A stretch of 64,000 bases of DNA from Spirochaetales bacterium. GTDB taxonomy: Bacteria > Spirochaetota > Spirochaetia > JABEVK01. The position numbers and the translations under genes are program-made. The stretch covers positions 491 to 64,490 of the forward strand of contig CANJXC010000006.1 in NCBI GenBank assembly GCA_947478845.1. The letters are read 5' to 3'. Under the pieces are notes generated by a model, which made no database searches, was not told where the DNA came from, and saw nothing but the letters and a program-made list of their open reading frames with translations. This document shows, in pieces, positions 42,929 to 63,000 of this stretch (the first letter of the stretch is position 1; the number at the start of each line of letters is the position of its first letter).

Positions 42929-42935
<7 letters not shown>

Positions 42936-42962
42936 ATATGCATGGGGTTGCATAAAGATTCC
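42929..42962 (+). promoter_or_regulatory. Tandem ARG-box-like operators upstream of argF
   Basis: CGCAT-AAAT-ATGCA (42929-42942) and TGCAT-AAAG-ATTCC (42949-42962), 20 bp apart, each one mismatch from TGmAT-N4-ATkCA. Confidence 0.6.
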
Positions 42963-42994
42963 TTTTTTGCTACGGTGAGCTCAAGGAGTTCTCC

Positions 42995-43942: not shown

Positions 43943-43951
43943 AAAACTCCC

Positions 43952-43980
43952 TTGCGATTCGCACCCGGTGTCGCTATACT
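43952..43980 (+). promoter_or_regulatory. Putative sigma70 promoter
   Basis: TTGCGA-17 nt-TATACT, 20 nt upstream of ATG 44001. Confidence 0.55.
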
Positions 43981-44000
43981 CATTCCAGAAAGGACATTCC

Positions 44001-44420: not shown

Positions 44421-44428
44421 ATCCATCC

Positions 44429-45403: not shown

Positions 45404-45565
45404 CGCCCGCTATGGGCGTGAAGGCTCCTCCCCACTTCAGTCTCAATCTTTTTCTTATGTGAACGAATGTCAACGCTTCAAACAACCTTGTGAGCTCCGG
45501 TGTCATTGTCTTTGGCCCCCTACTTTGGCACGCCTTGTGCTTCGGGCGTTCACAGGAGGAAGTCT

Positions 45566-46994: not shown

Positions 46995-48811
46995 GCACTA
47001 TCCCCGAGCGCAAAGACGTCGCAAAAACCGACCAGTGGAATCTCGAGCTCATCTACTCCACCGACAAGGCCTGGGAGGCGGATTTTGAGGTGTTTAAGAG
47101 CTTCCTCGCCCGGGTGGAGCCTTTAGGGGGCACCCTGGGCACTTCGAAGCACGCCTTTCGCAAGGTTCTCGACCTCAACCTCGATATTGAGCGCCTGGGA
47201 GAAAAGCTGGGCAACTACGCGCACCTCAAGACGACCGAAGATGTGGCCGACAGTGCCTCGAGCGAACGCCTAGGGCGCTTTGAAAGCGTAGCGACGCAGC
47301 TGGGGGCGGCTTTTGCCTTCCTGACCCCGGAGATTCAGGAAATCGACGACGCCACCTGGAACAGCTGGCTTGCCGACCCGCTTTTTGACGACGATCGCAT
47401 CGCTTTGCACAAGATCCGGCGCTACAAGCCCCATGTGTTGGGAACCGAGGCCGAAAAGGTGTTGGCGCTGGGCTCAGAGGCGAGGGGAGGGGTTCAGAGG
47501 GCGTTCTCGAGCCTCACGAATGCCGACCTGCAGTTTGGTTCCATCGTGGTGGAGGGCGAGCCCCGGCCCCTCACGCAGTCTTCGTATTCGGTTTTCCTGC
47601 AAAGTCCCGACGCAAAACTGCGCCGGCAAGCTTTTGACCAGTTCTACGCTGAGTTTGCCGCGCACGAGAACACCTTGGCCTCGCTGTACGCAGGGAGCCT
47701 GCAGCAAGACGTGTGGATCGCTCGGTCGCGGTCTTTTGCCAGCTCGCGGGCGAGGGCGCTGTTTGCCGACGATGTGCCGCCTGCGGTTTACGACAACCTC
47801 ATCGCCTCCGTGCACAAGGGCTTTCCGGTGCTGCACCGGTATTACGAGCTAAGGCGCAGGCTGCTAGGGCTGAAGACCCTGCATCATAGCGATGTTTATG
47901 CGCCCATGGTGGCGGTCGCCGAGATGCACCATAGTTGGGACCAAGCCGTCGACGTGGTGCTCGATGCCGTCGCGCCGCTAGGGGAGGCGTACCAGAAGAC
48001 CCTGGGGGAGGGGCTGCGGGGAGGATGGGCCGACCGCTACGAAAACAAGGGCAAACGCTCGGGTGCCTTTTCTGCAGGAGGTTTCGATACTCAGCCCTAC
48101 ATTTTGATGAACTTCAAACAAGACAGCCTCCGAGATGTCTTCACCCTGGCCCACGAAGCCGGACACTCCATGCACAGCTGGTTTTCGGTACGCAACAACC
48201 CTTTCCAGCACTACAGCTATACCATTTTTGAAGCCGAAGTAGCCTCCACCTTCAACGAGCAATTGCTGGCCAAAACCCTCCTAGAACGGAGTTCCGACAA
48301 AACCGCTCGGGCGGCCATTCTTGGCAAACAAATCGAAGACACCGTAGGAACCTTGTTCCGGCAAACCATGTTTGCCGAGTTTGAGCACTTGGTGCACGAA
48401 AAGGCCGAAGCCGGCGAAGGGTTGACCCTAGACCTGTTCAAGACCCTGTACCGCGGGTTGCTGGAGCAATACTTTGGCCCCGCAGTTCAGCTTGAGGCGT
48501 GTTCTGGGCTCGAATGCTTACGTATCCCGCACTTTTACAGCCCCTTCTACGTGTACAAGTACGCTACCGGCCTATCGGCTTCCATGGCCCTGAGCGACCA
48601 AGTGTTGAAGGGGGGCGAGGCAGAACGCAAACAGTACTTGGAGTTCCTTGGGTCCGGAGGATCCCGTTTCCCCCTCGAATCTCTCAAGCTCGCCGGAGTC
48701 GACATGAGCAGCCCCGAGCCCATTCAGAAGGCCATCGGTGTGTTCAGCCGCCTTTTGGACGAGTTGGAAGCCCTTACAGCGGGAACCTCGGGGAAGGCTT
48801 CGCATTCTTGA
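46991..48811 (+). CDS. pepF: Oligoendopeptidase F (M3B)
   Basis: WNLELIY, KGKRSGAFS, PYILMN, HEAGH zinc motif, AEVASTFNE, HFYSPFYVYKYA. Confidence 0.94.
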   Translation: MSTIPERKDVAKTDQWNLELIYSTDKAWEADFEVFKSFLARVEPLGGTLGTSKHAFRKVLDLNLDIERLGEKLGNYAHLKTTEDVADSASSERLGRFESVATQLGAAFAFLTPEIQEIDDATWNSWLADPLFDDDRIALHKIRRYKPHVLGTEAEKVLALGSEARGGVQRAFSSLTNADLQFGSIVVEGEPRPLTQSSYSVFLQSPDAKLRRQAFDQFYAEFAAHENTLASLYAGSLQQDVWIARSRSFASSRARALFADDVPPAVYDNLIASVHKGFPVLHRYYELRRRLLGLKTLHHSDVYAPMVAVAEMHHSWDQAVDVVLDAVAPLGEAYQKTLGEGLRGGWADRYENKGKRSGAFSAGGFDTQPYILMNFKQDSLRDVFTLAHEAGHSMHSWFSVRNNPFQHYSYTIFEAEVASTFNEQLLAKTLLERSSDKTARAAILGKQIEDTVGTLFRQTMFAEFEHLVHEKAEAGEGLTLDLFKTLYRGLLEQYFGPAVQLEACSGLECLRIPHFYSPFYVYKYATGLSASMALSDQVLKGGEAERKQYLEFLGSGGSRFPLESLKLAGVDMSSPEPIQKAIGVFSRLLDELEALTAGTSGKASHS

Positions 48812-48837
48812 CACCTACGCCTCCTGTGGGGTATAAA
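48808..48837 (+). promoter_or_regulatory. Putative sigma70 promoter of tRNA-Leu
   Basis: TTGACA-18 nt-TATAAA, 17 nt upstream of the tRNA. Confidence 0.6.
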
Positions 48838-48854
48838 AAGTCCGCTATCGATCC

Positions 48855-48937
48855 GCGGCGGTGGTGAAATGGTAGACACGCCAGCTTGAGGTGCTGGTGG
48901 GCGCAAGCTCGTGAAGGTTCAAGTCCTTTTCGCCGCA
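48855..48937 (+). tRNA. tRNA-Leu(GAG), CCA not encoded
   Basis: Acceptor stem GCGGCGG/TCGCCGC, D arm GTGAAATGGTAGACAC, anticodon arm CCAGC-TTGAGGT-GCTGG, long variable arm, T arm GAAGG-TTCAAGT-CCTTT, discriminator A. Confidence 0.95.
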
Positions 48938-48952
48938 CAAGTAAGTGGCTTC

Positions 48953-48976
48953 AAAAGCTCCCGGAAGGGAGCTTTT
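48953..48976 (+). terminator. Bidirectional rho-independent terminator after tRNA-Leu
   Basis: AAAAGCTCCC-GGAA-GGGAGCTTTT, a perfect hairpin with a T-run on both strands. Confidence 0.85.
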
Positions 48977-48992
48977 GTGTTTTCTGCCCCAG

Positions 48993-49148
48993 TGCGGCGA
49001 AAAGGACTTGAAAGGAGCCCCGCGCCGAGCGTGAGGCACCAAAGGTGCCGTCGAGGAGCAGCGCGCACGAGGCGCGCGACAGCGACGACGGCTGGCCGGC
49101 TGGGTTGGCAGGATGGCAACCCACGAAGGCCAAGTCCTTTTCGCCGCA
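48993..49148. repeat. 156-bp element bounded by inverted copies of the tRNA-Leu 3' end, with internal hairpins
   Basis: 48993-49012 is the exact reverse complement of tRNA 48918-48937. 49131-49148 is a direct 18-bp copy of 48920-48937. Confidence 0.85.
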
Positions 49149-49153
49149 AACGT

Positions 49154-49188
49154 AAAGCCCTTTAGGTCAATGACTTATGGGGCTTTTT
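49154..49188 (+). terminator. Imperfect hairpin plus T-tract after the third tRNA-end copy
   Basis: AAAGCCC-TT-TAGGTCA-A-TGACTTA-TG-GGGCTTT-TT. Confidence 0.55.
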
Positions 49189-49467
49189 CTTTGGCTAGAC
49201 ACGGTTAATGACACTGATACGTTCCGGGCGCAGACTAAACTCATGCCCAAACTGCGCCAACTCTATTCGTTGTATGGCCGCTCAGTTCCCCTTGTCGGCG
49301 GCAAGTCGGTCACAATGTACTACTACCGTACCTTCCCTTTGAGAACCACCGGAGTTGCGTCGCCAAACGAGTGGTAGAAGAGCACGGTGGCGGCTAGGGC
49401 GGGGACAATCGGGGTTTGGAGAAAGGGCACAGAAACCTCCAGAAACACGAGCGAAGCATGAATCCTG

Positions 49468-49846
49468 CTAGTCTATGAGGAGCCGTAGTGTTCCCGTATC
49501 GCCGGCTCCCTGAAAATGCTGACTAAGCACCTGTCGGAACACGCTCTCCGGGCCGGCTGCCAGCGCGAACAGCGTCATGCTGGAATGGAACTTCAGGTTG
49601 TCCGGCACGGGAAAGACCTGATCTACCGTCAATAGGCTCGACTGGAACGCGATCGTGGACTCTTTGAGTCTGGCGCCCAAGACGGGGTGGGCCAGGTAGA
49701 CCTTTGCCGCTTCCAGGTTGTGCAATGCGTAGAATTGAGCTGTTTCCGAGTGCCCCAATCCCGCAAGTTGCGGGAACACGAACCACATCCAGTGCCGCCG
49801 TGTAGGTGGAGCGTTGAGCGTCGACAAACCGCTGCAAGTCACTCAT
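49468..49846 (-). pseudogene. DUF1810 family pseudogene (internal deletion plus frameshift)
   Basis: One frame reads MSDLQRFVDAQRSTYTAAL. A different frame continues HWMWFVFPQLAGLGHSETAQFYAL...HPVLGARL...DNLKFHSSMTLF. The usual linker before HWMW is missing. Confidence 0.8.
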
Positions 49847-50561
49847 CCGAACACCCTTAGGAAGGGGACGAAGTTGCCTTCCGGGTTGTGCTCGCGAAAC
49901 GCGTTGTGGTCTTCGAGAATCGCGAAGACTACCAAGGCAAACGCCCCGGCGAACTCCGGTTCCTCGAACACTTCTTGGAACAGTCGAGCGGTGTGCCCGG
50001 GTGGATTGCGGAAGGCCCCACAGCCGAAGGCGCTCAGCACCAGCGCGTCGTTCCCCTGATGTGCCGCGATTCGCAGAATTGCCCGCATGCGTTCCTTCGC
50101 GGCAGGCACGAGCGAAGGATCAAGCTCCCACGTTCCATCGCGTTGCTGTAACTCGGGTCGGTTGAGGGCCGGTACACTGACAACATCGAGGTGCAACGTC
50201 GATGGCAGGAGCTGGTACCCACTCGCCTCGCTGCTGCGGAAGAAGGCCGCCTGCGGACTGAAGGCACCTCCATGATCTCGGTCGAGGGGGTAACCGGTGG
50301 ATTGGTGCGGGTACAGCGAGACGAAGAGGTTGGAGCGACGGAAGAGGTTTTCTTCCTGGGCCCCAGCGCCGCTCTTCACTCCGCCTCCGGGAGTTTGGCG
50401 GTTGGCCATGTTGAGCAGGGCAGGTCGGCGTTTACCCGTGCTGTAGTGTCAGCATAGACGTCGCGACGAAGTTGGTGCAGTTGTTCGTGGTTCTTGGTTG
50501 ATGCGGCGATACGGAAATCAGCCAGCCATTGTTGGGCATTCCAGCGGTTGTTTGGGTCCAT
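49843..50561 (-). pseudogene. TIGR02452/DUF2263 (bacterial PARG-like macrodomain) gene, frameshifted by an internal deletion
   Basis: The N-terminus (MDPNNRW...LRRDVYADTT, from 50561) is out of frame with RPALLNMANRQTPGGGVKSGAGAQEENLFRRSNL...LVLSAFGCGAFRNPP. The GGG-x7-QEE signature is intact. Confidence 0.8.
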
Positions 50562-50711
50562 GTCTCATTGTAGCTCGGAATGATGCACTGGTGATGCACT
50601 TCGAAGCGGGGCACAGACGGCCCGAGGTGCTGAGAAGTTCTTCAATCATTGCGGGGTGCCAGCAAGGGACTCGCATTCAGATTTGATACTGCCGACCAGA
50701 CGCGGGAGGCC

Positions 50712-50981
50712 CTAGGTCGACTCTTGAAGGGCTAGGAGCGACAGGTACGCAGCGTGGTACTTGGCCAAACGGGCCAGAACTTTGTCGTCCAGCTTCTGAA
50801 GGCGGGTCAGGGTCATGTTCTGGGCCAAATCTGCCAGCTTGATGGCCCGGGTCTCGGGTTGGGCACCGGCTCGCGCCACGTAGGCCGCATAGTCCGCTCC
50901 CTTGGGTTTGGTGAGCAGGACAACCCAACCGACTACCTGCTCCGAAAACCCTTCGGCGAGCAGGCACTGGGCTGTCCAGGG
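50712..50981 (-). pseudogene. C-terminal remnant of an HD-domain (RelA/SpoT-hydrolase-like) protein
   Basis: Hand translation: PWTAQCLLAEGFSEQVVGWVVLLTKPKGADYAAYVARAGAQPETRAIKLADLAQNMTLTRLQKLDDKVLARLAKYHAAYLSLLALQEST*. An in-frame stop lies upstream near 51000; no HD motif and no start. Confidence 0.7.
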
Positions 50982-51095
50982 AACGGCCTTTGTTGAGAGC
51001 TAAGAGTATACGCCTGTAAATACTTGTAGCCCATGAAGTTTCATTTCGCCGATGGAATGCACCGACAGCGCACCCGCGAGGGCCAATCTGAGTGC

Positions 51096-51311
51096 ATGAG
51101 ACACCGAAGGGGACCCATCATACCCATCTTGAGACGTATAGCCGTCGCCGTTGCTCTGGCGCTGATCCTCGGCTACATCCTGAAGGCCGAACAACCGGCA
51201 AGCTACTTGCCTGCAGTGGGTAATGGCCGTTATGGGCCGACTGAGCACTTTCGTTGGCCCATGGAATTTTCTCTGAAAGACACCGTCGCGACAAGGCTGA
51301 AGGTCGTATGA
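51096..51311 (+). CDS. Possible small membrane protein
   Basis: A basic N-terminus followed by one hydrophobic helix (IAVAVALALILGYIL). No clear SD. Confidence 0.3.
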   Translation: MRHRRGPIIPILRRIAVAVALALILGYILKAEQPASYLPAVGNGRYGPTEHFRWPMEFSLKDTVATRLKVV

Positions 51312-51441
51312 CTGCCAGAAGGTGGACATCAAGTGGTCGAGACGTGGTGACTACTTTGTGGTCATTGTGGGATGGGGAGTGCCGTGGTGTAATGAACTCT
51401 GACTCTTCGTACGATCTGATGCTGGACCAAGGAGGTTCGTG

Positions 51442-52161
51442 ATGGGGCGGGGTGGCTACACCGGCGGGAGTTCATCGTTCAACATCTACAAAGGCGGATT
51501 TGCTTCTCACGACCCGGCTGCGCCCGACCCTGGTGTCGAAGTTTATCGTCCTGAAGTGAAGTTTGCGAAGCGAACAGCCGCAGCTCAACAAGTCAGGATT
51601 GATCAGGCGACAAAAGACTACATCTCCAGCATCATTGTCAGCTATCAGCTAGGTTCTATCTTGCCGCCCTGTCCGCCCGAGCTTCTGTCGGTGGTACATG
51701 CATCGATCAGAAAGGCAGGCGGTCCGCTGGAGTGGGTAAGGAGTCGGCCCGAATACCGCGAGATCTACGAGAAACACAGAAAAAAGTCGGTCACTAAAGC
51801 CGGTGAGCGGTATGAGGCTGACTTCCGGAAAGCCTGGGCCCGTGGCACTAGTCTACCTGAGCTACCTCCGGTGATCGCCGAAACCTTTGCGCTTGCGATC
51901 AAAGAGAAGGGGGGAGTACTTGAATGGACTCTCCTCAAACTCGACCTCGTCAAAGCACCCACGAAGTCGGCACGCACGTTCCCACCCTTGCCCCACCCGA
52001 TCTCGCCCCAAAACATCCAAGCCTATCTCCTCGAAGTGGGCTTCGGCGACGACAAAATGGAACTTTCTGACCTCGATTTGGAAGCCCTTTCGAAGCACCT
52101 CTTGAAGAAAGGAATACGAATCCCATTGAAGGACAGAAACATCAAGAGGAGTATAACTTGA
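51442..52161 (+). CDS. Hypothetical protein with an internal tandem repeat
   Basis: AAGGAGG SD. Two 41-aa repeats ending GGxLEW. Its stop overlaps the next start (TTGA). Confidence 0.75.
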   Translation: MGRGGYTGGSSSFNIYKGGFASHDPAAPDPGVEVYRPEVKFAKRTAAAQQVRIDQATKDYISSIIVSYQLGSILPPCPPELLSVVHASIRKAGGPLEWVRSRPEYREIYEKHRKKSVTKAGERYEADFRKAWARGTSLPELPPVIAETFALAIKEKGGVLEWTLLKLDLVKAPTKSARTFPPLPHPISPQNIQAYLLEVGFGDDKMELSDLDLEALSKHLLKKGIRIPLKDRNIKRSIT

Positions 52162-52553
52162 AGGCAGCGAAGAAACCCCAGCTCGCGAGCGTTGAGCAGC
52201 TCTTCGGAATGGAACCGCCTCAGGTCCATTGTTCCATTTGCGGCAAGACCCTTTTTCCCGATATGGAGAACATCGAGGGCGTCGAAGCCTGTGAGCACTT
52301 GGCCTTCGTCTTCTACGGCATTGCCGGAGAGTATGGCCACAAGTCGTCCGCCTTTGAAGCGAAGTTCCAGCCCGTCGAAGACGACTTTGACTCGTCGGAG
52401 TCCGTGACGGCGCTCGCCCAGGCCGGCTACAAGAACGAACTCCTCGTGCTCGAGATCACCTACGGTGGAATGGGCCACGGGCCAAGCTGTTACACCGACT
52501 TGTATGGGTTCGACTTCAGTATCGAACGAACCTCGGACCAAGAAGACCAATGA
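52158..52553 (+). CDS. Small acidic hypothetical protein with a CxxC...CxH putative Zn site
   Basis: TTG start with a GAGGAG SD. HCSICGK...ACEH. Overlaps both neighbours by 4 nt. Confidence 0.75.
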   Translation: MKAAKKPQLASVEQLFGMEPPQVHCSICGKTLFPDMENIEGVEACEHLAFVFYGIAGEYGHKSSAFEAKFQPVEDDFDSSESVTALAQAGYKNELLVLEITYGGMGHGPSCYTDLYGFDFSIERTSDQEDQ

Positions 52554-55345
52554 TTTACCGGCAGATTCTTGCGCACAATCGTCTCGAAAAGCCAGATGGA
52601 AGGCCCCTCTTTCGCTACCGCGTGCCGGAGCGCCTTCTGAATCCCCTCGACCTCGAGATCCGTTCCGGTCTCAAAGGAACTCCAACTTGGGAGGGCGCCC
52701 CCCTGTTTTGCCTTTGGGCTAGTCGAAAACTTCGCTCGCTGAGTGAGGACTTGCCCGGAAACCTGTCTTGGAACCAGCTCGGTCTAGGTCGTGAGTTTCC
52801 TCGAAGCCTCTTGGTTGGTTGGGCTGATCTCGGCCTGGAACGTTTGAAAAGGCCGATTGCAAAGAACGTCTCGGACGCCCACCTAAGGCTGCATACTCTC
52901 TTCCTCGAAGGTGGAGTGCCACTTCGTCAACTGCAACGGGATCTTTGGACGCAAGTGAAGACCCTCTTCACCTCGTTTCGTCCCCTTGGAACCGGTGCGA
53001 CCTTGGCTCACATACACGGTCGAGTAACCGAAAGCCTTCCCGATCTTCCACCTCTCAAGCTTCAGGCCCTCACGATCTTCTTGCGCGGGCTCGTTCAGCT
53101 GGATCAGGATGTGAGTTTTCAGCGATCGCTACCGAGCAACTGGGACGAGGCGACCGTTGCTAAGGCCTCGAGCCTCCTTAATGTCGAACTGCCTTCCGAT
53201 TTGGCTTGGCTGGATGCCCTGCTCCGCGAGACCCCGAGAGAGACCCGAAGGCGTACCTGTGGTGGTCTGTGGCTCGTCGAGGGTGTTCACTCCGGGGACG
53301 TGAAGTTGCTCTTTCAGCCTGACCTTCCAAGACGGCTTTCTCAGGGTGAGCTCACAGCGGACGTTTGGCTCCACCTGGTTTCAGACGGGAAGCGCACTTT
53401 TGTAGGTCGCTATGAAAAAACGGGTGAGGGACCGCTCCTCCAAGACCAGCGCCCTGTTGAGTTTGAACCGTCAAAGTCCTGGAACTCGGTTCGGCTCTTG
53501 GCGGAAGATGAAGACGACGAACCAGTTCGCTCGCCCGTTCAGCTTAAAGGTTTTGAAACCCCGAGTTTCCCTCTTGTCGCGCGCCGTGCTGACCTTTCGG
53601 CGACACGTTGGCTAGTCGTCCCCGCAAACTGGAAGCTCGTACAGGAAGGGCAAGCTCTCCTTCCAAGGGGTTCCTGGCTTGTCGCACCGTTTGAGCCCTC
53701 GGTTCAGATCTTCGACCCAGATGGGCAGCTCTTTGCGGTACCTGAACGAGAGGCTAAGCCGATTCCTCCCCTTGAAGGCTGGGAATCCCTGGAAGGGGTC
53801 CTTTTCGCAGGAAAGCCGGTTCGGACAAAGCTACCCCGAGAGATCACTGGTTGGGTTAAGGATCGAACCGAGGGACTTGTTACCTTTCGTTTCCTGGACG
53901 CAGAGGGCCGCACCAAGAGTCGCCAGCAGGAGGTTGTCCTTCCGGGTCTCTCCGTCGAAGGTAGGGTCTATCCCGCGGCCACGGCCCAAGAGCTTGCTAA
54001 GGTTCTCTGGACTGTTCGTCTTCCCTCGCCTTGGCATTTTGCCGAAACCGCCCGGGATCAGGGCGACGAAAAGGGCGTCTTCAAGTTTCGTACCGACTTC
54101 CGACAAGACCACGGAGACGAGGCTGGTGAACGTTTTCTTGTTACCGACGGTCTTCAGACTCTCACCTTGACTGCCTTTGCCTCGCCGCAGCTCTTCCTAT
54201 GCGAAACGGCCAACGCTCCGTTGCTTCAGGTCCACGAGTCGACCGTTTGGGAACAAGACCTCGTAGACCGCTGGTGGCTCTTCAAAACGAAGCGCGTGCG
54301 GGACCTGGTCGTCAATGATGAGGCTTTCGACCTCGATGTGCCCGAAGACGTCTCTTCGCGTCCAGGGCAGCTCTTGCTTCGGTCGTTTTCTGATCGCCTT
54401 CCCGTTCAGCCACACCCGACGGACCCCCTACGGAGTTTCCGTCAGCTTCGCTTGTTGGTACGTTCCAAGACCGTGGTGCACGCCGCTGGTTACCACGAGG
54501 AGTTACAGATAACGATCGAGAGTCACGCAATCGGTCTCGCTAGGTCGGCCTTGTTCCCCCTGGGGGAAGGTTTAAAGGTTCGAATCAACGCAGAGGGGTT
54601 GAGTCAACGCGAGCAGCCACCAGTCTTGCAGGTTCTTGCACTCTGGAACCCGAAAGCCGAGCCTCTGGTTCTCGCCCAGGAGGCCGACACTTATTGGCTT
54701 CCCGACGGCTGGCAGAATTATCCTGAAGGCATGTACTTACTCTATTGTGAGGCTCAGCCTAACTGGTTCCGGCCGGCCCTCTTTCCTCTCAACTCGGGGA
54801 GGACTTACGTTGGAGACTTGTCCCCCATGCAGCGGATTGCCCATGGGGAGGAGCTTGCTGAGCGACTCAAGGCCCTTCCCGCAGGAGAGGACAACTTCTA
54901 CAACCTCTCCCTTAAGGCATATTCAGAGCTCTTCCAGACCCTGCGCAACGATCCTGATAGCCCTGAATGGCTGACCCTTTGGCACACCCTTGGTCGTTTC
55001 GTGGCCTTTGGAACAGAGTTCCTTTTTCAGATCAAAGTGCTCCGCGAGCTCCTTCAGACCCCTGGGGAGGCGTCGGTTTCGGGCTTCCTCGGCCTTTTAT
55101 GGGCGGTGCGCGCAGGGTTTCTGGCGACCGGCGAAGCCGACTTGCCGGCCCATCGCCTAAATCGTCTCCTGAACAAGACCGAACGACCAGTGTTTGTCGA
55201 CTTCAAACTCAAACATCTAGCGACTAACTCTCAACTCGCTGGAGCTTTTGTTCAGGCTGTGGACCTTCTCCCAGAAACCTGGGTAGAAGGCCAAACCAGT
55301 CTCAAGGAAGTTCTAGCGGTTGTACGTCCGGAGGCCCACCCATGA
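52550..55345 (+). CDS. druH: DruH-like (STY4851/ECs_5259-type) protein
   Basis: The N-terminus KPDGRPLFRYR...LFCLWAS...SW...GL..L.RP...LHTLFLEGGVP matches the family as I recall it. It lies directly upstream of, and is coupled to, a DUF1998 helicase, the Druantia type III arrangement. Confidence 0.65.
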   Translation: MIYRQILAHNRLEKPDGRPLFRYRVPERLLNPLDLEIRSGLKGTPTWEGAPLFCLWASRKLRSLSEDLPGNLSWNQLGLGREFPRSLLVGWADLGLERLKRPIAKNVSDAHLRLHTLFLEGGVPLRQLQRDLWTQVKTLFTSFRPLGTGATLAHIHGRVTESLPDLPPLKLQALTIFLRGLVQLDQDVSFQRSLPSNWDEATVAKASSLLNVELPSDLAWLDALLRETPRETRRRTCGGLWLVEGVHSGDVKLLFQPDLPRRLSQGELTADVWLHLVSDGKRTFVGRYEKTGEGPLLQDQRPVEFEPSKSWNSVRLLAEDEDDEPVRSPVQLKGFETPSFPLVARRADLSATRWLVVPANWKLVQEGQALLPRGSWLVAPFEPSVQIFDPDGQLFAVPEREAKPIPPLEGWESLEGVLFAGKPVRTKLPREITGWVKDRTEGLVTFRFLDAEGRTKSRQQEVVLPGLSVEGRVYPAATAQELAKVLWTVRLPSPWHFAETARDQGDEKGVFKFRTDFRQDHGDEAGERFLVTDGLQTLTLTAFASPQLFLCETANAPLLQVHESTVWEQDLVDRWWLFKTKRVRDLVVNDEAFDLDVPEDVSSRPGQLLLRSFSDRLPVQPHPTDPLRSFRQLRLLVRSKTVVHAAGYHEELQITIESHAIGLARSALFPLGEGLKVRINAEGLSQREQPPVLQVLALWNPKAEPLVLAQEADTYWLPDGWQNYPEGMYLLYCEAQPNWFRPALFPLNSGRTYVGDLSPMQRIAHGEELAERLKALPAGEDNFYNLSLKAYSELFQTLRNDPDSPEWLTLWHTLGRFVAFGTEFLFQIKVLRELLQTPGEASVSGFLGLLWAVRAGFLATGEADLPAHRLNRLLNKTERPVFVDFKLKHLATNSQLAGAFVQAVDLLPETWVEGQTSLKEVLAVVRPEAHP

Positions 55346-58300
55346 ACCCTTTACTTGCTTTCCCCTCGGAACTCCGCAAGACTCTTGCGGAGGCAATTCT
55401 CTCCGACTGGAAACTCCGCAACGCCGACCTCGCCAACTGGCTGAAAACAGAGTTTACGAAAGAGGCCGGCTCTGACCTGTCATTGCTGGGTGAACCCCTC
55501 CTCAAGGCGCTTTTCGGCTATCGCCCCTACGAGAGATCCATGCGGCAGCTCGTGGACGACGGTTTGCTTAGCCGAAATCTTTTTGAGAAAGTGCCCCGCC
55601 TTCTCGGCGGTCTTGACAACTCAATGGCAAGACCGTACTCCCATCAGGGGGAGGCTTGGGCTTCGCTGCTAGCTCCAGAGCCAAGAGCCACGCTTCTCAG
55701 TGCCGGTACCGCCGCAGGCAAGACGCAGGCCTTTATGGTTCCCATCGTCAACTCCCTCGTCAGGCAACTTGAGGAGCGAGGTGAGGTGGAACAAGGAGTG
55801 CAGGCCTTGATCTTGTACCCGCTAAACGCCCTCATTGAGGACCAGCAACAACGGTTGACCGGCTACCTGAAACCGTTTCAAGGGGAACTTCGCTTCAGCC
55901 GCTGGAATGGTCTGACCCCGGAACAGGTCTCGAGGGCGGAACAAGCCAAGGTTCCGTGGGAAGTGTTGGACCGCTTCGGCATGCGTAACAGTCCTGCCTC
56001 GATTCTTATCACGAACATCACCATGCTCGAGTACCTCCTACTTCGGGACCAAGACGCTCCGATTTTGGCCAAGTCTCAAGGCAAACTTAAGTACGTTGTC
56101 GTTGACGAGGCACACAACTATCAGGGGGCTCAGGCCGAAGAATTGGCCCTTTTGCTCAAGCGCGTCCTTGATGCCTTCGGGGTAACTCCAAACGAGGTCC
56201 GTTTCTCAGCGTTCTCGGCTACCCTGGGGGATCGGACCAAGCCGGAGCCTCTCAGGAATTTTCTTCGGAACCTCTCTGGACGCACGGACTCTCGCCTCGA
56301 CGTGATCCATGACTCGCCCGTGTTCGTATCCCCCACGCTTGAGCCCAGCAACCCGTTCCTTCCTTGGACCCAAGCTCTTGAAGCCGCAGACAGCCATGCG
56401 GTTTTCGTCAAGGATTTACCGATTCTTTCCCAGACGAACGACCAGAAACCGCTCGAACTGCTGACCACCTTCACCCAAAAGGCGCCGGTGGGCACAGGTC
56501 TCAGCCTGCGCCTGAATCTCTTCGTGAAGACCTTGCCAGGACTCTTCGCCTGTTCCAATGCGAGCTGCCCGAGCCGACCTCCCGTGCCCTCCTGGAAGTA
56601 CGGTCAATTCTTGTCGGAACAACGTGAGACTTGCCCAGTTTGTTCTTACCCGGTTGGCCAAGTTGTGCGCTGCGGCTCCTGTGGCGAACCCCATCTCGCC
56701 CTTGCTGAAGACCCCGATGCGGCCGGGAAGCCGCACCTCAAGGCCCTAGGCGTGCCCTTCAAGACACTTGCGGAGGAGGAGGAGCAGGATGAGGAGCTCG
56801 ACCTCGATCCCGGGGTACTCCGCCTTCTGGGGCCTCCCCGTTCTGACAACTGTCGGTATCTTGAAGCGTCGGGTCGCGTATTCTCCACACCTTCAAAGGG
56901 CACACCCATCGCCTACGAGCTATATCTGGACTCCAACAAGAAGAACCAGCCGAGTTGCCTTGGTTGTTCGGCTAGGGGACTCCGACATTTCTCGCCCTTG
57001 AGGGCGGATGAGCCCTTTCTGCTCAATCAGTTTCCCTCGGCCGTTCTGAAGGTTTCCTCTCCTTCGTTGGCGGCCAGTAGTGAGGATCTTCCTTGGCAAG
57101 GAAGACGAGCGCTAAGTTTCACCGATGCCCGTCAAAAGACGGCACGCTACGCGCTCAACGCTCGCCTCGACGCGGAACGTAACTGGGTAAGACAGTGGCT
57201 TCTGCGGTTCTTGGCGTTGAAGGGTGGTCGTACGCCTAGAGTTCTCATCAATGCCCTGGACCTCGAATTGCAGAAGCCAACACGCGCGTACCTTCGAGAG
57301 TACTATCAGCCTGCACTCACGAGCCCACGGGATCTTGCCACCGTTCTGGTTCTTCGAGAACTTGGGCGTCGCTCGCTCCGGGGGACAAACCTCGAGGCCC
57401 TCGGACTTCTAGCTCTCGACTTCCCCGAACTTCAGGAGGTAGTCCTTCCGGTCGTCGCCGCCGAACTCCAGGTGGACCTCGCAAATTGGCGTCAGTTCCT
57501 TGCCGTTTTTCTCACAACAAGGGTTCGCACCAACTGGTGGCTGGACCTCGACGAGTTGGACTCGGCCACCGAGTGGCTCCAGGCCTACGTGACCTACAAT
57601 CGGCAACGCCCCCTTCTCAAGAGTTTCGTTCCGGAGGACTGCTCCTTCGTAAACAAGACTACCCAGAAGGCCAATTCCTACGGCGAACTTCTGTTTGGGA
57701 TGGACACGCAAGTTCTCGAAGACGAGACCGTTCACGAACGCTTAAAGCATGCGGTTTTTGATAGTTTGAAGTCCGTCTGCAATCTTGGGCTCGACAACGG
57801 GCTTCGACTGGATTTCCTCAACAAAGTCTCGGTTCGTCTTTTACCGGAGTTCTGGTACGGCACTGGTTTCGGTGAGGTGGTTTCCGAGACGGTCCAAGGG
57901 CGACATCCTCTCTTTGGTCGGGGCGAGCCAAAGAAACTGGCGTGGAACCTCGATTTTCCCAACCTGTTTCACAGCAGGGCGCAGGAACTGGAACCTTCCG
58001 TGGAGGCCCGCCTGACGGAACTCCGCGAGTTAGGGTTTTGGAACCACTATCACCAACGGCTCCTAACTGGAACCCACGACTTCGTCGTTCAGGAACACAG
58101 CGCCCAGATTCCACCGGCGGAGCTCAAAGTGAGAAACCAAGGCTTTCGGGACGGAACGATCAACTACTTGTTCTGTACTACGACCATGGAAATGGGCGTC
58201 GATATAGGCGAGCTGAACGCGGTAGTCATGAACAACGTACCGCCGCTCCCCGGCAACTATCAGCAGCGCGCCGGGCGCGCGGGTCGCGCCGGTCAACCCG

Positions 58301-59988
58301 TCTCGCTTGCCCTTACCTTGTGTCCGCCACGTCCGCTCGCGCTGCAACTCTACCAGAACCCCCGCTGGCTTCTCGGCCCGACGAAGGTCCCTCAGGTAAG
58401 GTTCCGCTCTCGTGAAGTCGTTTTTCGGCAGTTCCGTGCTTTGGCCCTAGGCCTTTGGGTTCGAGAGACGAACACGCACGACCCTTGGAAGAGCGTCAAG
58501 GACTTCTTTTTAGCTGATTCAGGCGTTGAAAGCCGCAGCGAAACGTTTCTGGCCTGGCTTTCAGCTCCTCCCGAAAAAGCAAAACTCCAACTATCAGACT
58601 TCCTCAACGGGACGCCCTTTGACGGCCTCTCCACCTTAGCAACTCGTCTGGCAGGCGAGAACCTACAAGAAGTTGCCGAGGCCTGGACTTCGTTGCGGGT
58701 ACGCCTTGAGCAGGACCTGCTCACGGTAAAGCGGGAAGGCAACTCAAAGGCAGAAGGTGCGGTCAACAGTCGGCTTCAGGCGGTTGAGGGTGAGAATCTG
58801 ATCGTGCATCTCTGCAGGCAGCTTTTCCTTCCTAGCTATGGCTTTCCGACCCGCGTCGTGGAACTCGAACTCCCCAAGACGTATTACGCTGGGACAGGGG
58901 GGCGTGGCCACCAAAGAGGTGGAGAGGGCCCCAGTCGCTCCCTCTCGATGGCCCTTCGCGAATACGCACCCAGCGCGAGCGTGCTTCTCGATCAGCACAA
59001 TTTCCGCGTCGCAGGAGTTCTCCCGAAGAGCCGGTTTCAAGCCGACAGCAAACTGCCCATCGTCAAGAACGACGTCTGGTATTGTTTGAACTGCGGCACT
59101 TCGGGGGATGGCTTTCTCGAGACGTGTCCGGTCTGCGCCAAACCCGTTGAGCATGTGGCCTATCTAGAACCTCAAGGGTTCTCCGTCGATGAGGCCCGGC
59201 CCCTGGTACCCTTGGACGAGGATTCGCAACGCGGGACCGTAGAGGTTCGGCCCCTATTGCCGACGGACGGAAAGGCCAGTGCTCGGTACTCCTCTGCCGA
59301 CAACAGACTCGTACTAGACCTGTACCAAGAAGGCTCTGGTCGCGTGTTCCAGGCCAATCGTGGCCTTGGCAAGCGCCCCTTTTTCTCGGGCTTCATCTAC
59401 TGCTGGGATTGTCATAGAGCGGTGCTCCATACCCCCGGTTCGGCGTGGCGCGAGGAGTTTACCCTAAACACTGCGGGCCGGCACTACCACCTCACAAAGC
59501 CCGGTCAGTTCTGCAAAGCCAGCGAGAACCAACTGCACCTGAAGATGTCACTGGGCTTCGTCATGAAGACTGACGTCTTGGTCTTTCGGGGTTCAAGCTT
59601 GTGGGGCGAGGACGAAGTTGTTGCCTGGACTCTCGGCGAAGCTCTTCGCGAAGTCCTGGCCCAAGACCTCAGCATCGTTGTCGATGATCTCGGTTTGGAA
59701 CTGGTGGCCTGGGAAGGGCAACTGGTCGTAGTCTTCTTCGATAGCCAAGAAGGGGGAGCGGGGCTAGTGGCCCAGATCCCGGAACTGTTGCCGAGCCTGT
59801 GGACTCGAGCCCTTAGGTTGCTTTCGTGTCGAGACGCGACCGACCAAGGCTGCGACGTTGTGTGTCACCACTGTCTGCTTTCAAGTCACACGCAGTTTCG
59901 TGCCGATCAGAGGCTGCTCGATCGCAAGAAGGGCCTTGCGGCCTTGCGAAGCTGGACGCCGGACCAGCTCAAGAAGGAGGTTTTGTGA
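55342..59988 (+). CDS. druE: Large SF2 DEAH helicase with Zn-finger inserts and a C-terminal DUF1998 (DruE-like)
   Basis: Q motif PYSHQ, GTAAGKT, YPLNALIEDQ, TNITMLEYLLLR, DEAH, SATLG, FTDARQ, EHSAQ, TTTMEMGVDIG, YQQRAGRAGR. DUF1998 reads FDSQEGGAG...C...C..VCHHCL. Confidence 0.85.
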   Translation: MNPLLAFPSELRKTLAEAILSDWKLRNADLANWLKTEFTKEAGSDLSLLGEPLLKALFGYRPYERSMRQLVDDGLLSRNLFEKVPRLLGGLDNSMARPYSHQGEAWASLLAPEPRATLLSAGTAAGKTQAFMVPIVNSLVRQLEERGEVEQGVQALILYPLNALIEDQQQRLTGYLKPFQGELRFSRWNGLTPEQVSRAEQAKVPWEVLDRFGMRNSPASILITNITMLEYLLLRDQDAPILAKSQGKLKYVVVDEAHNYQGAQAEELALLLKRVLDAFGVTPNEVRFSAFSATLGDRTKPEPLRNFLRNLSGRTDSRLDVIHDSPVFVSPTLEPSNPFLPWTQALEAADSHAVFVKDLPILSQTNDQKPLELLTTFTQKAPVGTGLSLRLNLFVKTLPGLFACSNASCPSRPPVPSWKYGQFLSEQRETCPVCSYPVGQVVRCGSCGEPHLALAEDPDAAGKPHLKALGVPFKTLAEEEEQDEELDLDPGVLRLLGPPRSDNCRYLEASGRVFSTPSKGTPIAYELYLDSNKKNQPSCLGCSARGLRHFSPLRADEPFLLNQFPSAVLKVSSPSLAASSEDLPWQGRRALSFTDARQKTARYALNARLDAERNWVRQWLLRFLALKGGRTPRVLINALDLELQKPTRAYLREYYQPALTSPRDLATVLVLRELGRRSLRGTNLEALGLLALDFPELQEVVLPVVAAELQVDLANWRQFLAVFLTTRVRTNWWLDLDELDSATEWLQAYVTYNRQRPLLKSFVPEDCSFVNKTTQKANSYGELLFGMDTQVLEDETVHERLKHAVFDSLKSVCNLGLDNGLRLDFLNKVSVRLLPEFWYGTGFGEVVSETVQGRHPLFGRGEPKKLAWNLDFPNLFHSRAQELEPSVEARLTELRELGFWNHYHQRLLTGTHDFVVQEHSAQIPPAELKVRNQGFRDGTINYLFCTTTMEMGVDIGELNAVVMNNVPPLPGNYQQRAGRAGRAGQPVSLALTLCPPRPLALQLYQNPRWLLGPTKVPQVRFRSREVVFRQFRALALGLWVRETNTHDPWKSVKDFFLADSGVESRSETFLAWLSAPPEKAKLQLSDFLNGTPFDGLSTLATRLAGENLQEVAEAWTSLRVRLEQDLLTVKREGNSKAEGAVNSRLQAVEGENLIVHLCRQLFLPSYGFPTRVVELELPKTYYAGTGGRGHQRGGEGPSRSLSMALREYAPSASVLLDQHNFRVAGVLPKSRFQADSKLPIVKNDVWYCLNCGTSGDGFLETCPVCAKPVEHVAYLEPQGFSVDEARPLVPLDEDSQRGTVEVRPLLPTDGKASARYSSADNRLVLDLYQEGSGRVFQANRGLGKRPFFSGFIYCWDCHRAVLHTPGSAWREEFTLNTAGRHYHLTKPGQFCKASENQLHLKMSLGFVMKTDVLVFRGSSLWGEDEVVAWTLGEALREVLAQDLSIVVDDLGLELVAWEGQLVVVFFDSQEGGAGLVAQIPELLPSLWTRALRLLSCRDATDQGCDVVCHHCLLSSHTQFRADQRLLDRKKGLAALRSWTPDQLKKEVL

Positions 59989-60041
59989 CCCAAGCCTTTC
60001 ACTCGCAGTGCGATCCATGCTGGAATGGTGCCCATGGCTAA
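59985..60041 (+). other. 18-codon mini-ORF bridging the helicase stop and the res start
   Basis: AAGGAGG SD plus a GTG overlapping the helicase TGA. Its TAA (60039-60041) lies inside ATGGCTAA of res. Confidence 0.45.
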
Positions 60042-63000
60042 CCCCTTCTTCGACCAACCGATTCTGAACTCTCCTTACGAGAAACCGGGCCGCCACTGGG
60101 AACTCGATGCGGAAGGGCAACCAACCCAGCAAATCATCCTTCGGCGACGCGAAGCGAAGTTCGTGACGCCGATTCCCAAGGCCAAGACCAGCGGAACTGG
60201 TGGCCGCAAAGGTTCCAAGAAAAAAGGGCAGGACACCTCAAAGTTGCTCGACCTCGTCTACGACGAGCAGGCTGCCGCCGTTTCAACGGACGAGCTGAAC
60301 TATGACCTGACGCAGACGATCAGTTCACTCCGTCACCAGGTAGACGAATGGCGCGCCCTGACAAACCCGAGTGACTGGAGGGTGACACCTGAAACGGCGC
60401 GCCTGCTCCAACATTGGCGCAGCCACCCCTTTACCAGCGTTCGCCCGTTCTTCTGCCAGCTGGAGGCCGTCGAGACCCTCATTTGGTTGACTGAAGTTGC
60501 TCCCAAGGCCGGCAAGAAGGGGGAGGACTTCCTGTCGAGCCTCAACGCCGCCAACGAGCAGGCCAACCCAGGCCTCGACCGTGTGGCCCTGAAACTGGCA
60601 ACCGGTGCCGGCAAAACTACGGTCATGGCCCTCGTCATCGCGTGGCAGACCATCAACGCCGTCCGTTACAAGAACAGCCGCTTCACGAAAGCCTTCCTGA
60701 TCGTCACCCCAGGGATCACGATCCGTGACCGGCTTCGGGTATTGCAACCCAATGACCCCGATAGTTACTACAAGAGCCGTGAGCTGGTTCCCGAGGAGTT
60801 GCTTCCCGAGCTCCAGAAGGCTCGCATCGTCATCACGAACTACCATGCCTTCAAACTCCGCGAGAAACTCGAACTCTCCAAGGGCACCCGATCGCTCCTT
60901 CAGGGCAACGGCGAGGATCTCAAGACGCTCGAGTCCGAAGGGCAGATGTTGCAGCGGGTGATGCCCGAGCTCCTAAACCTCAAGAATGTGCTGGTGCTGA
61001 ACGACGAGGCCCACCATTGCTACCAGGCTCGTCCAGAAACGAACGAGGAGAAGGAACTTCGCGGCGAGGAAAAGGCGGAGGCCGAGGAAAACAAGAAGGC
61101 GGCCAGCCTCTGGATCAACGGCCTGCGCGCGGTCGGAAATCAGCTCGGTTTGAACAAGGTCCTCGACCTCTCGGCAACCCCGTTCTTCCTCCGTGGCTCG
61201 GGCTACCAGGAAGGGACGCTCTTCCCGTGGACGATGTCCGACTTCTCGCTGATGGATGCGATCGAGTGCGGCATCGTTAAGCTTCCCCGCGTCCCCATTT
61301 CCGACAACATCTCCGGCGAGGAACTACCCATGTTCCGCAACCTTTGGGCCCACATCCGCGACAAGATGCCCAAGAAGGGACGTGGCAAGGGCGACGATGG
61401 CTTTCTGGATCCACATTCTCTACCCCCCCCGCTGTTGACGGCCCTTGAGGCGCTTTACGGCCACTACAAGGCCACCTACGAAGCCTGGGAGTCCGAAGGG
61501 ATGGGCGTGCCCCCATGCCTCATTGTAGTTTGTAATAACGTCACTGCCTCCAAACTCGTTTACGACTACATCTCGGGCTTCAATAGGCCCCACTCGGACG
61601 GGAGCACAAGTTTTGAGCACGGGAGACTCGAGCTTTTTCAGAACTTCGACAAAAACGGCACCCCCCATGCAAGACCTCGCACCCTGCTGATTGACAGCCG
61701 TGAACTCGACTCAGGCGAACCACTTAGTGACGCTTTCCATAAGGCGGCTGCAAGCGAACTTGAACGCTTTAGGCGCGAATACATTGAACGGACAAACGAT
61801 GTTGTTGGAGCCGCAAACCTAAAGGACGAAGACATACTCCGGGAAGTCATGAACACAGTCGGGAAGAGGGGACGTCTTGGCGCCTCGATTCGTTGCGTTG
61901 TCTCAGTTTCCATGCTGACCGAAGGTTGGGACACCAACACGGTGACGCACGTGCTCGGCGTGCGAGCGTTCGGCACCCAGCTGTTGTGCGAGCAGGTCGT
62001 CGGCCGAGCGCTCCGGCGCCAATCCTACGAGCTGAACGAAGAAAAGCTCTTCAACGTCGAGTATGCAGACGTGCTCGGCATTCCCTTCGACTTCACGGCA
62101 ACCCCAGTGTTGCCCAAGCCGATCAAGCCGCGTGAAACCGTGCAGGTGTTCGCAATCCGGCCCGACCGCGATGCGCTCGAGCTCACGTTCCCCCGGGTGA
62201 AAGGCTACCGCATCAAGCTCGAAGACCAGACACTTACCGCGCAATTCACCGAAGACTCGAAGCTTGTGCTGAGCGAAGAGCTCATCGGATCGACCCTGAC
62301 AGTAACATCAGGCATCATCGGCAAAACCGCCGAACTCAATCTCGAACACACAGGCGACCTTCGTCGATCAACCCTTGTGTACGAACTCACGTCGTACCTT
62401 TTGCTGAACTTCTGGAAGGATGAAGACGGCAATCCGCGCCTGACGCTCTTCAACAAATTGCGACCCCACGTGATGAAGTGGCTCGACCACTACTTGGTAT
62501 GCGAACCCGGAACCTACCCGGCCCAGCTGCGCTACAAATACCTTGCGAACTTGGCCGCAGAACGGATTCAAAACGCAATCACGCGGTCGGAGCAGCAGAA
62601 CAACCGTCCCGTGCTCGCCGTGCTCGACCCGTACAACCCGCAGGGGTCCACCAAACACGTTAACTTCTACACGTCGAATCCTCTGAAGTGGGAGACAAGG
62701 GCCGACAGGTGCCACGTCAACTGGGCCATTCTCGACAGCACTTGGGAAAAGGAGTTCTGTCGGGTGGTCGAGAACCACCCTCGGGTGCTAGCCTACGTGA
62801 AGAATCAGGACCTCGGTTTCGAGGTGCCGTACCTGATGGGGGCCGAGAAGCGGACCTACCTACCGGACTTTCTGGTGCACCTGGACGACGGTCACCGGCC
62901 TGAAGACCCGCTCAACTTGATCGTCGAGATCAAGGGCTACCGGGGCGAAGACGCCAAGACCAAGCGCGAGACCATGGACGTCTACTGGGTCCCCGGGGTG

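Follow-up and report, generated by a model that had tools for sequence, protein, structure and literature searches.

Why would the 3' end of a tRNA gene be present three times at a single bacterial locus, with one copy inverted and two of the copies enclosing a series of hairpins? We examined this question in a stretch of 64,000 nucleotides (nt) from a Spirochaetales bacterium (contig CANJXC010000006.1 of assembly GCA_947478845.1), called the window below, in which the inverted and the distal copy bound a 156-nt element (the unit) behind the gene for tRNA-Leu(GAG). Our preferred answer, to which we give a probability of roughly 0.55 on the basis of comparative sequence analysis, is that the unit belongs to an undescribed family of structured RNAs. 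Its closing helix (P1) copies the acceptor/T-stem stack of the tRNA, it would probably be matured from the tRNA transcript, and it possibly titrates a GGA-binding protein such as CsrA. No described equivalent of the element was found in the literature searched. The parts of the locus on which the argument depends are as follows.

48808..48837, + strand: promoter-like TTGACA-N18-TATAAA upstream of tRNA-Leu, found by direct sequence reading
48855..48937 (end at 48937/8), + strand: tRNA-Leu(GAG), called by ARAGORN and by the Rfam tRNA model (52.4 bits)
48918-48937, + strand: copy 1, the last 20 nt of the tRNA (T-loop, 3' half of the T-stem, acceptor 3' strand, discriminator A)
48938..48992, + strand: spacer X, with an intrinsic-terminator hairpin at 48952-48977, an A-tract 5' and a T-tract 3' of it (terminator scan and repeat finder)
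48993..49148, + strand: the unit, a 156-nt structured element that belongs to the family (model R1: 129 bits here, 32 bits on the opposite strand)
48993..49010, + strand: 5' arm of P1 (copy 2), exact reverse complement of the last 18 nt of the tRNA (repeat finder)
49035..49049, + strand: hairpin GGCACC-AAA-GGTGCC, at the position of family helix P3
49061..49077, + strand: hairpin P4, GCGCGC-ACGAG-GCGCGC, whose stem covaries in the family (5/6 pairs changed on both sides)
49094..49131, + strand: stem P5, GGCC at 49094-49097 paired with GGCC at 49128-49131 and enclosing P6 (3/4 pairs covary)
49102..49122, + strand: hairpin P6, loop AGGAU (6/6 pairs covary)
49131..49148, + strand: 3' arm of P1 (copy 3), exact direct copy of the last 18 nt of the tRNA (repeat finder)
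49154..49193, + strand: second terminator-like hairpin (AAAGCCC...GGGGCTTTTTCTTT) after the unit (74% complementary by repeat finder; fold)

The three copies of the tRNA end had been described in an earlier, sequence-only reading of this DNA, with which the repeat finder, ARAGORN and Rfam agree base for base. That reading also placed copy 2 just past a terminator as an exact reverse complement. A terminator was detected at 48952-48977, and the inverted repeat that joins the tRNA and copy 2 is perfect over 21 nt (48918-48938 and 48992-49012). The 18-base pair (bp) terminal inverted repeat that copies 2 and 3 were said to form is likewise exact (48993-49010 and 49131-49148). An AA at 49011-49012 lengthens the complementarity of copy 2 to the tRNA and not to the 3' arm of the unit itself. 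As direct repeats, the tRNA end and copy 3 are identical over 18 nt and match at 92% over 25 nt (48920-48944 and 49131-49155), and the GAAGG-C just 5' of copy 3 corresponds to the 5' half of the T-stem with a loop that is one base short. The 18-mer occurs exactly three times in the window, where about 0.09 matches are expected even with three mismatches allowed. The 5' arm unites the acceptor 5' strand, the T-stem 5' strand and the complement of the T-loop on one continuous strand, and P1 is therefore a continuous-helix copy of the coaxial acceptor/T-stem stack that ends in the discriminator A.

An assembly artefact, which the sequence-only reading had considered, is ruled out because contigs of two independent runs cover 48400-49800 with no differences and no joints within the element. 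At least six independent freshwater/lake metagenome runs contain the window locus at full word share. In two runs (X1 and X3), other and more abundant contigs (depth 90 versus 15.6) match the GC-rich segment 49011-49104 at a likeness of at least 85% and diverge at 49040 and 49075 into unrelated-looking sequence. These contigs could be chance GC-rich matches or could carry related units of other organisms.

Recurrence of the unit and its match to the local tRNA

The same architecture is present in 12 loci, which together hold 17 units (L numbers denote fetched loci). The order is always tRNA-Leu(GAG), terminator hairpin, inverted tRNA end, an interior of about 100-150 nt and direct tRNA end, and relative to the tRNA the 17 units are oriented alike. 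In the window unit, the 18-bp arms surround a branched interior of about 120 nt, and units in the family are about 135-180 nt long. The spacer of 41-77 nt contains a GC-rich hairpin that is preceded by an A-tract and usually followed by a T-tract. Spacer X is repeated after the direct tRNA end and many loci continue with a second or third unit, such that arrays contain one to three units and a copy of the terminator stands behind almost every unit. Behind the window unit, the hairpin at 49154-49193 is weaker than the terminator at 48952-48977 and was not listed by the terminator scan.

Several routes led to these loci. A scan of metagenome contigs for two arms located 112-142 nt apart, which was anchored on tRNA-type termini, revealed nine further loci, all of them at tRNA-Leu(GAG). 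Another locus (L081) was found through its neighbouring gene for PepF (M3 oligoendopeptidase F), the gene upstream of the window tRNA. The L081 PepF is 78% identical, and the locus exhibits the three-copy architecture with a diverged interior whose hairpins have been preserved through compensatory changes. Searching with a covariance model of the units revealed L070, in a metagenome-assembled genome classified by GTDB as 'uncultured Spirochaetales', where PepF is 45% identical.

Other relatives carry only the tRNA and its terminator and lack the element (L082, PepF 78%; L084-L087, 70%). Spacer X is homologous to this native terminator of element-free relatives, and GCTCCC-N4-GGGAGC hairpins are located behind the tRNA in L082, L084 and L085. 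In Spirochaetota, the order PepF, tRNA-Leu(GAG), terminator is common, and the upstream gene order in relatives is OTCase, TP_0437, DHH, a gene of unknown function, Ham1 and PepF. A GTDB scan that used the PepF neighbour gave a best match of 54% identity, and hence no close genome, placed the nearest named genomes in Spirochaetota and indicated that the PepF/tRNA-Leu(GAG) neighbourhood is widespread in the phylum. The carriers are thus probably a patchily distributed set of Spirochaetota.

The termini of the units follow the tRNA beside them. Where the tRNA ends in ...CCTTTTCGCCGCA (CCTTTT type), the arms contain GAAAAGG and CCTTTT, and where it ends in ...CCTCTTCGCCGCA (CCTCTT type), they contain GAAGAGG and CCTCTT. 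The divergent tRNA of L070 ends in ...AAGTCGTCTCCGCAGCA, and its unit has the 3' arm AAGTCGTCTGTGCAGCA and a 5' arm that is degenerate but matching. P1 spans 16-18 bp in the family. The sequence-only reading had asked whether the termini are swapped to match each tRNA, and this holds among variants of tRNA-Leu(GAG), the only scope in which it could be assessed. One unit (L094_1; L094 868-1005) has the 5' arm of the other tRNA type (GAAAAGG), and both its 3' arm and the local tRNA are of the CCTCTT type, which creates an A-C mismatch in P1. Because the 3' arm matches the local tRNA and the 5' arm differs, this unit suggests that homogenisation with the tRNA reaches the 3' arm before the 5' arm. 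We also observed a subtype (L090 3801-3976 and L093 509-690) whose 3' arm has an additional GC-rich hairpin (GGCCGA...TCGGCC) in place of its T-loop part, which shortens P1 to about 14 bp.

Arrays also differ in how their parts are combined. Within an array, spacers are identical or nearly so (L092, L094 and L097), and the interiors belong to different subfamilies. One unit (L091_1) is a recombinant: its 5' two-thirds are of the L089_1 type and its 3' hairpin is of the L089_2 type. The locus L090 comes from a strain that is 96.7% identical to the window over 41614-49155. It carries the unit of the window with few changes behind a different spacer, and the 53-nt spacer of the window is found in L090 after that unit and ahead of a second one. 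Therefore, spacers and interiors have been reshuffled or homogenised between near-identical strains.

A conserved fold on the tRNA-sense strand

A lack of homologues and of covariation in the interior was among the outcomes that the sequence-only reading had named as refuting. Homologues were found, in the form of the other units, and they show covariation. We applied RNAalifold to an alignment of 16 units and used as controls alignments in which the 3' partners were slid by 1-3 columns as well as 500 shuffles. The consensus consists of the closing helix P1, the hairpin P4 and the four-pair stem P5, which encloses the hairpin P6. Double changes occur in 15 of the 32 consensus pairs. Paired cells amount to 95.5% versus 40-51% in the slid controls, double-change cells number 81 versus 1-24, and none of the 500 shuffles reached the observed covariation. 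In subfamily S, which is the best-aligned one and has five units, there are 53 consensus pairs, of which 17 have compensatory changes, and a long-range helix (P2) appears as GCAGC/GCTGC, GCGCC/GGCGC, GUGGC/GCCAC and GCACC/GGUGC. The resulting plan within P1 has P2 around P3 and P4, followed by P5 around P6, and minimum free energy (MFE) folds of the individual units agree with it.

For the window unit, the predicted fold of the 156-nt stretch has an energy of -94.1 kcal/mol (z = -7.2 versus shuffles). All four hairpins that had been read from the sequence are present. Those at 49035-49049, 49061-49077 and 49102-49122 are helices kept in relatives, whereas the CAGC-N7-GCTG hairpin (49080-49094) is not retained even in the 97%-identical strain L090.

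The two strands of the unit differ strongly. The interiors of the family have a composition of G 43%, A 20%, C 29% and T 8% on the tRNA strand, and in them GGA outnumbers TCC by 96 to 11 and GAG outnumbers CTC by 127 to 5. Units score 90-158 bits with the family model on the tRNA-sense strand and 16-40 bits on the opposite strand. Based on this asymmetry and on the model scores, we take a tRNA-sense single strand to be the probable functional form.

Whereas the stems of P4 and P6 vary freely, their loops mostly conform to C-A(N)GGA(N)-G (for example CAUGGAUG, CAAGGAUG, CAGGACG, CAGGAUG and CAGGAAG), and GGA is present in 28 of the 34 P4/P6 loops. In most relatives the P4 loop is A(U/A)GGA(U/C), which is not seen in the window copy. 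Subfamily S has symmetric GGA/GGA internal loops in three helices. Each unit contains 3-10 GGA triplets, and 79 of all 106 are mostly unpaired (75%, versus 34% for all triplets). The L070 unit is GC- and GGA-rich within an AT-rich genome and includes two AGGA(C/A) loops.

Two other interpretations of the unit as an RNA were considered and set aside. Hairpins that resemble an anticodon arm and a variable arm could make it a diverged duplicate tRNA. The anticodon-like hairpin is not conserved even in L090, and the bases that resemble a T-stem pair elsewhere (in P5) in the consensus fold. ARAGORN does not call the unit a tRNA and Rfam does not do so even at E <= 10, and this is also true in L089, L093, L094 and L096. 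The tRNA-derived part of the unit is at most its 3' 25 or so nt. The second interpretation, a primer-binding site with the 5' arm paired to the tRNA 3' end, can be dismissed since the bases that it would place opposite CCA do not fit. Rfam searches at permissive thresholds with the window locus and the same four loci returned the tRNA plus noise only.

The conserved fold also bears on a further explanation of the locus, namely a scar left by islands that integrated and excised repeatedly or an invertible switch, the latter having been suggested earlier as a recombinase-invertible cassette. The inverted repeats flank spacer and interior alike, and direct repeats of tRNA ends are the usual footprint of integrative elements. 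However, a scar would not keep a covarying fold across lineages. A switch would show orientation polymorphism, and there is none in the 17 units (17/17 in one orientation relative to the tRNA); nor are there inversion joints in short-read contigs of four runs, a check that could miss rare variants. Furthermore, copies 1 and 3 enclose just 193 bp and no gene, and thus they do not flank an integrase-bearing element as attL and attR repeats do; a true island junction is seen in L091. Scar and switch are therefore very improbable, and by present evidence this explanation is largely refuted.

The distribution and the loops are also relevant to the view that the unit is a selfish tRNA-derived repeat, similar to miniature inverted-repeat transposable elements (MITEs) or REPINs, or a by-product of palindrome-driven duplication. 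Its hairpins would then promote its own propagation and have no function for the host. Terminal inverted repeats, small size and the lack of an open reading frame (ORF) agree with this view, as do recombinant units such as L091_1 and the patchy occurrence among close relatives (present in L081 and absent from L082, although PepF in both has 78% identity to the window protein). However, all 17 units are located behind tRNA-Leu(GAG), and a covariance model search of the window and 97 fetched loci (0.84 Mb, a sequence set with four non-Leu tRNAs) identified no unit elsewhere. No transposase or RAYT is linked to the units and no target-site duplication was seen. Moreover, because loop motifs are conserved over varying stems across distant hosts, down to 45% PepF identity, selection appears to act on more than a terminal hairpin. 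We therefore regard a selfish repeat as improbable.

Proposed transcription with the tRNA, and the island boundary

An RNA made in the tRNA direction is supported by the branched fold, which is conserved with compensatory changes, by the fixed orientation of the units, by a sense strand rich in purines, and by the conserved loops and the terminators. Among the roles suggested by the sequence-only reading, an RNA structure that mimics the tRNA 3' end or pairs with it thus fits best with the fold, covariation, strand asymmetry, single orientation and terminators. We propose that the tRNA-sense strand would give rise to the putative RNA; because no separate promoter is visible, the simplest route would be read-through from the tRNA promoter followed by processing. 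The promoter-like site at 48808-48837 is the sole recognizable promoter at the locus and overlaps the end of the PepF gene (ORF including stop to 48811). A TTGACA...TATAAA/TAAAAA arrangement is also found upstream of the tRNA in L081, L082 and L084. The consensus promoter scan did not list the window site because its second hexamer ends in A.

The tRNA-like clamp formed by P1 may serve in maturation or stability, with RNase P and the tRNA 3'-end enzymes acting on a minihelix mimic. Alternatively, RNase III might use the 18-bp stem as its handle, as in the processing stalks of rRNA. These proposals derive from the established specificities of the enzymes. The exposed GGA loops could then bind a GGA-recognizing protein, for which CsrA is the obvious candidate, and the array would serve as a titrating sponge. 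Of the possible activities, titration seems the likeliest to us, though we offer it only tentatively, because GGA is not uniquely enriched and the P4 loop of the window lacks it. It can be viewed against a background in which the csrA-fliW operon is conserved in spirochaetes and csrB/csrC are lacking there (PMC8668096). The csrA gene is conserved in cultured spirochaetes, and control of CsrA in spirochaetes is thought to run through FliW (PMC8668096). Two-hairpin motifs with GGA loops have been proposed elsewhere to be CsrA sponges (PMC4333381).

Several observations weigh against an RNA of this kind. The element was detected in no RNA run. Four metatranscriptomes touch the organism, and the result is uninformative rather than negative because even the neighbouring genes are covered only in scraps. 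Neither a scan nor sequence reading revealed a sigma-70-like promoter between the terminator and the unit, the A/T-rich bases just upstream of the unit being too close for a -10 box, and expression would therefore need read-through of the terminator. No csrA-like ORF is present in the 64-kb window. With regard to the loops, the window P4 loop has no GGA, GAG and CGA are as enriched as GGA, and GAG, CGA and AAG are equally unpaired, such that the GGA signal is in part general purine-rich unpaired sequence. Finally, an RNA clamp need not be identical to the tRNA, and this identity together with the islands that begin at the distal copy fits a role as an att site at the DNA level equally well.

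A thermodynamic prediction for the whole precursor adds a possible layer to the RNA reading. The MFE fold of 48855-49195 does not form the tRNA. Instead, the tRNA 3' end reaches across the terminator to pair with copy 2, the 5' acceptor strand of the tRNA pairs with copy 3, and mutually exclusive registers are therefore predicted to be available. A register switch along an array is conceivable because every 5' arm has a choice of partners, namely its own 3' arm or the end of the preceding tRNA or unit. In the fullest form of this idea, CsrA or a different GGA-binding regulator would be antagonized by the units, which would travel as passengers of the tRNA-Leu(GAG) transcript, be released or stabilized by a tRNA-identical clamp and represent the first such RNAs in Spirochaetota. 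The register switch would couple tRNA-Leu maturation, sponge output and the availability of the att core to island integrases. We consider this combination rather doubtful.

The mention of islands reflects a second property of the locus: tRNA-Leu(GAG) is an integration hot spot. The identity between the window and L090 ends at 49155, seven bases past copy 3, and the window DNA beyond this point is organized as follows.

49156..63153, unstranded: strain-variable DNA, consisting of degraded genes and then a defence-type island; L090 is unrelated beyond 49155
49200-51400: about 2 kb with no long ORFs, which looks like decaying DNA at an island edge
49468-50409, - strand: two adjacent ORFs, apparently N-terminally truncated, one DUF1810 (profile positions 22-136 only) and the other TIGR02452 / microbial PARG-like (profile 87-256 of 266)
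51439-63153, + strand: defence-type island, absent from the 97%-identical L090, which encodes a 240-aa protein of unknown function, a 931-aa protein whose N-terminus resembles YjiT/STY4851, a DEAD/DEAH helicase of 1548 aa that carries an MrfA Zn-binding (MZB) domain at its C-terminus and has partial DpdJ/Cas3-like matches, and a BPTD_3080-family restriction endonuclease of 1042 aa (1258 bits)

A candidate integrase remnant right after the window element was not supported by tblastn with two integrases or by translation. At other loci, a tyrosine integrase gene directly follows the tRNA (L087 and L091), an integrase gene with weak Pfam hits, cut by the contig end, starts about 100 nt past the last unit core (L093), or ORFs with integrase-like N-termini begin about 100 nt past the last core (L092, L081 and L089). 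In L091 and L097, the tRNA's anticodon loop was the entry point of an island, which displaced the 3' tRNA fragment and the array to its far end. The complete L091 tRNA and the integrase gene are at one end and the 3' tRNA fragment is 8.2 kb away (1540-1680 and 8600-9920). The displaced fragment (in L097 at 8410-8545) starts with ...TTGAGGTGCT and is followed by the spacer/unit array. A motif, TAAGG(A/G)TTTAC, is shared shortly after the tRNA or the last core (L084 5950-5975, L092 5105-5135 and L093 695-725) and may be an integrase arm-type site.

These findings give weight to a DNA-level recombination cassette, by which we mean either a miniature non-autonomous element or a folded att site similar to attC or that of CTX-phi, with a stem that reproduces the att-core duplex of the tRNA and with insertion by a tyrosine integrase supplied from an island. 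A circle with a hairpin att site that entered the tRNA core would be expected to leave core, spacer, inverted core, interior and core, which is the order observed. The hot spot, the integrase genes directly behind the tRNA or near the last core, the divergence of the window and L090 exactly at copy 3, the spacer/interior combinations shuffled between these strains, and arms that match the local tRNA also agree with a cassette. However, in this model the element imports the spacer between copies 1 and 2, and that spacer is homologous to the terminator that relatives without the element natively have. The integrases, tyrosine recombinases of the ordinary arm type, fall below every NCBIfam cut-off, including those of integron and Xer models (the L087 integrase scores 36 bits against the 220-bit cut-off of an Xer/integron model), and half of the arrays have no nearby integrase. 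When the folded-site idea was assessed directly, the stem was perfect, with neither attC-type extrahelical bases nor an unpaired central spacer, and no integron integrase or Xer partner was found among the adjacent integrases. Viral contigs searched with an interior 28-mer and the termini pattern gave no match, nor did phage and plasmid collections searched with the unit by blastn. A cassette also gives no role to the GGA loops, the purine-rich symmetric internal loops or the terminators of individual units. We judge this explanation unlikely.

A different DNA-level role is that of a 'landing pad', an attB that serves as an auxiliary or decoy. The direct copies of the tRNA end would be retained since islands integrate there and spare the tRNA, and the interior would be incidental or used otherwise. 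In five loci the order is tRNA, array and integrase or integrase-like ORF, with a distance from core to start of about 95-120 nt, as in L087, and the defence island of the window starts at copy 3. A landing pad leaves the inverted copy, the covarying interior and the strand bias unexplained. In addition, the T-loop equivalent of the unit is one base shorter than that of the tRNA, which might disable an integrase that crosses over there, and the islands of L091 and L097 entered the anticodon loop of the tRNA itself and displaced the array. As the whole explanation, a landing pad seems quite unlikely, but it is compatible with a structured RNA. The miniature tRNA-targeting element and the decoy att site of the sequence-only reading are accordingly candidates of low probability: the locus is an integration hot spot with variable DNA from the distal copy onward, but every unit found lies at tRNA-Leu(GAG) and none was found in the phage, plasmid or viral collections.

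The consequences differ between the readings. If the unit acts as RNA, it would represent a new and well-supported structured family in a poorly studied bacterial group. Its design would be unusual, with a closing helix copied from and co-evolving with the neighbouring tRNA 3' end and tandem units that share the terminator of the tRNA. CsrA control in spirochaetes has a missing RNA arm, for which such an RNA would be a concrete candidate, and it would also show that RNA production on a tRNA scaffold occurs in nature. If the unit acts as DNA, it would belong to an array of gene-less cassettes at a tRNA integration site, an arrangement of a new kind. In either case, repeated tRNA ends beside tRNA genes are not always island scars, and this locus marks a boundary where defence islands exchange between near-identical strains.

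Comparison with known systems

The element resembles Csr/Rsm sponges in its motifs, tRNA-linked RNAs in its position and clamp, and attC and CTX-phi sites in its topology, and it lacks the defining features of each. With the Csr/Rsm sponges (CsrB, CsrC and RsmX/Y/Z) and with the candidate two-hairpin GGA-loop motifs TwoAYGGAY and Bacillaceae-1 it shares short non-coding units that expose many unpaired GGA triplets. The likeness extends to two hairpins with A(N)GGA(N) loops over freely varying stems and to a terminator behind each unit. Tandem multi-copy arrangements also occur in rsmX, and copies of Bacillaceae-1, like the element, are linked to stable-RNA operons. However, the best score with any Csr/Rsm-type model was 17.7 bits (PrrB_RsmZ, E = 1.7, gathering threshold 44) for one L096 unit, and the window unit matched none of the Rfam models for CsrB, CsrC, RsmX, RsmY and PrrB_RsmZ. 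Unlike Csr/Rsm RNAs, the element has no visible promoter of its own, carries a tRNA-derived 18-bp clamp and is as enriched in GAG and CGA as in GGA. The known Csr/Rsm families are proteobacterial, whereas the carriers of the element are probable Spirochaetota.

Functional RNAs can originate from tRNA transcripts or through tRNA-like maturation, as exemplified by the 3'ETS-leuZ sponge of E. coli, signals of the mascRNA/MALAT1 type, and minihelix substrates of RNase P and the CCA-adding enzyme. Like 3'ETS-leuZ-type RNAs, the element is located in the 3' trailer region of a tRNA-Leu gene, and its closing helix corresponds to the acceptor stem, T-stem and discriminator A, the part that RNase P and the CCA-adding enzyme recognize. 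Unlike RNAs processed from or as tRNAs, it lies beyond a strong terminator, is present in tandem and is not recognized as a tRNA. Its helix runs continuously for 16-18 bp through the position of the T-loop and hence leaves neither a T-loop nor a D-arm, in contrast to tRNA-like RNAs.

As in attC and in attP(+) of CTX-phi, inverted cores that pair within one strand are arranged around a variable structured spacer. The arrays likewise adjoin a tyrosine-recombinase target, with the copy order that integration of a hairpin site would produce. Unlike attC, the stem is perfect and has no extrahelical bases, there is no integron integrase, and the 'cassettes' contain no ORFs. A further difference from attC and CTX-phi sites is that the first spacer is the native terminator and that the adjacent integrases are ordinary and often absent.

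MITEs such as Correia/NEMIS elements and REPINs offer the last comparison. They share with the element a size of about 150 nt, terminal inverted repeats of 18-20 nt, the lack of coding capacity and a position beside terminators. In contrast to MITEs, the inverted repeats of the element are copied from the neighbouring tRNA and follow its variants, the element occupies a single locus in the available data (with a metagenome scan anchored on tRNA-type termini), and its interior fold and loop motifs are conserved. Judged by sequence against all of these systems, the description that we favor, at somewhat better than even odds, is a structured bacterial non-coding RNA with an unusual closing helix that is derived from a tRNA and tracks it, organized in tandem at a boundary of island exchange.

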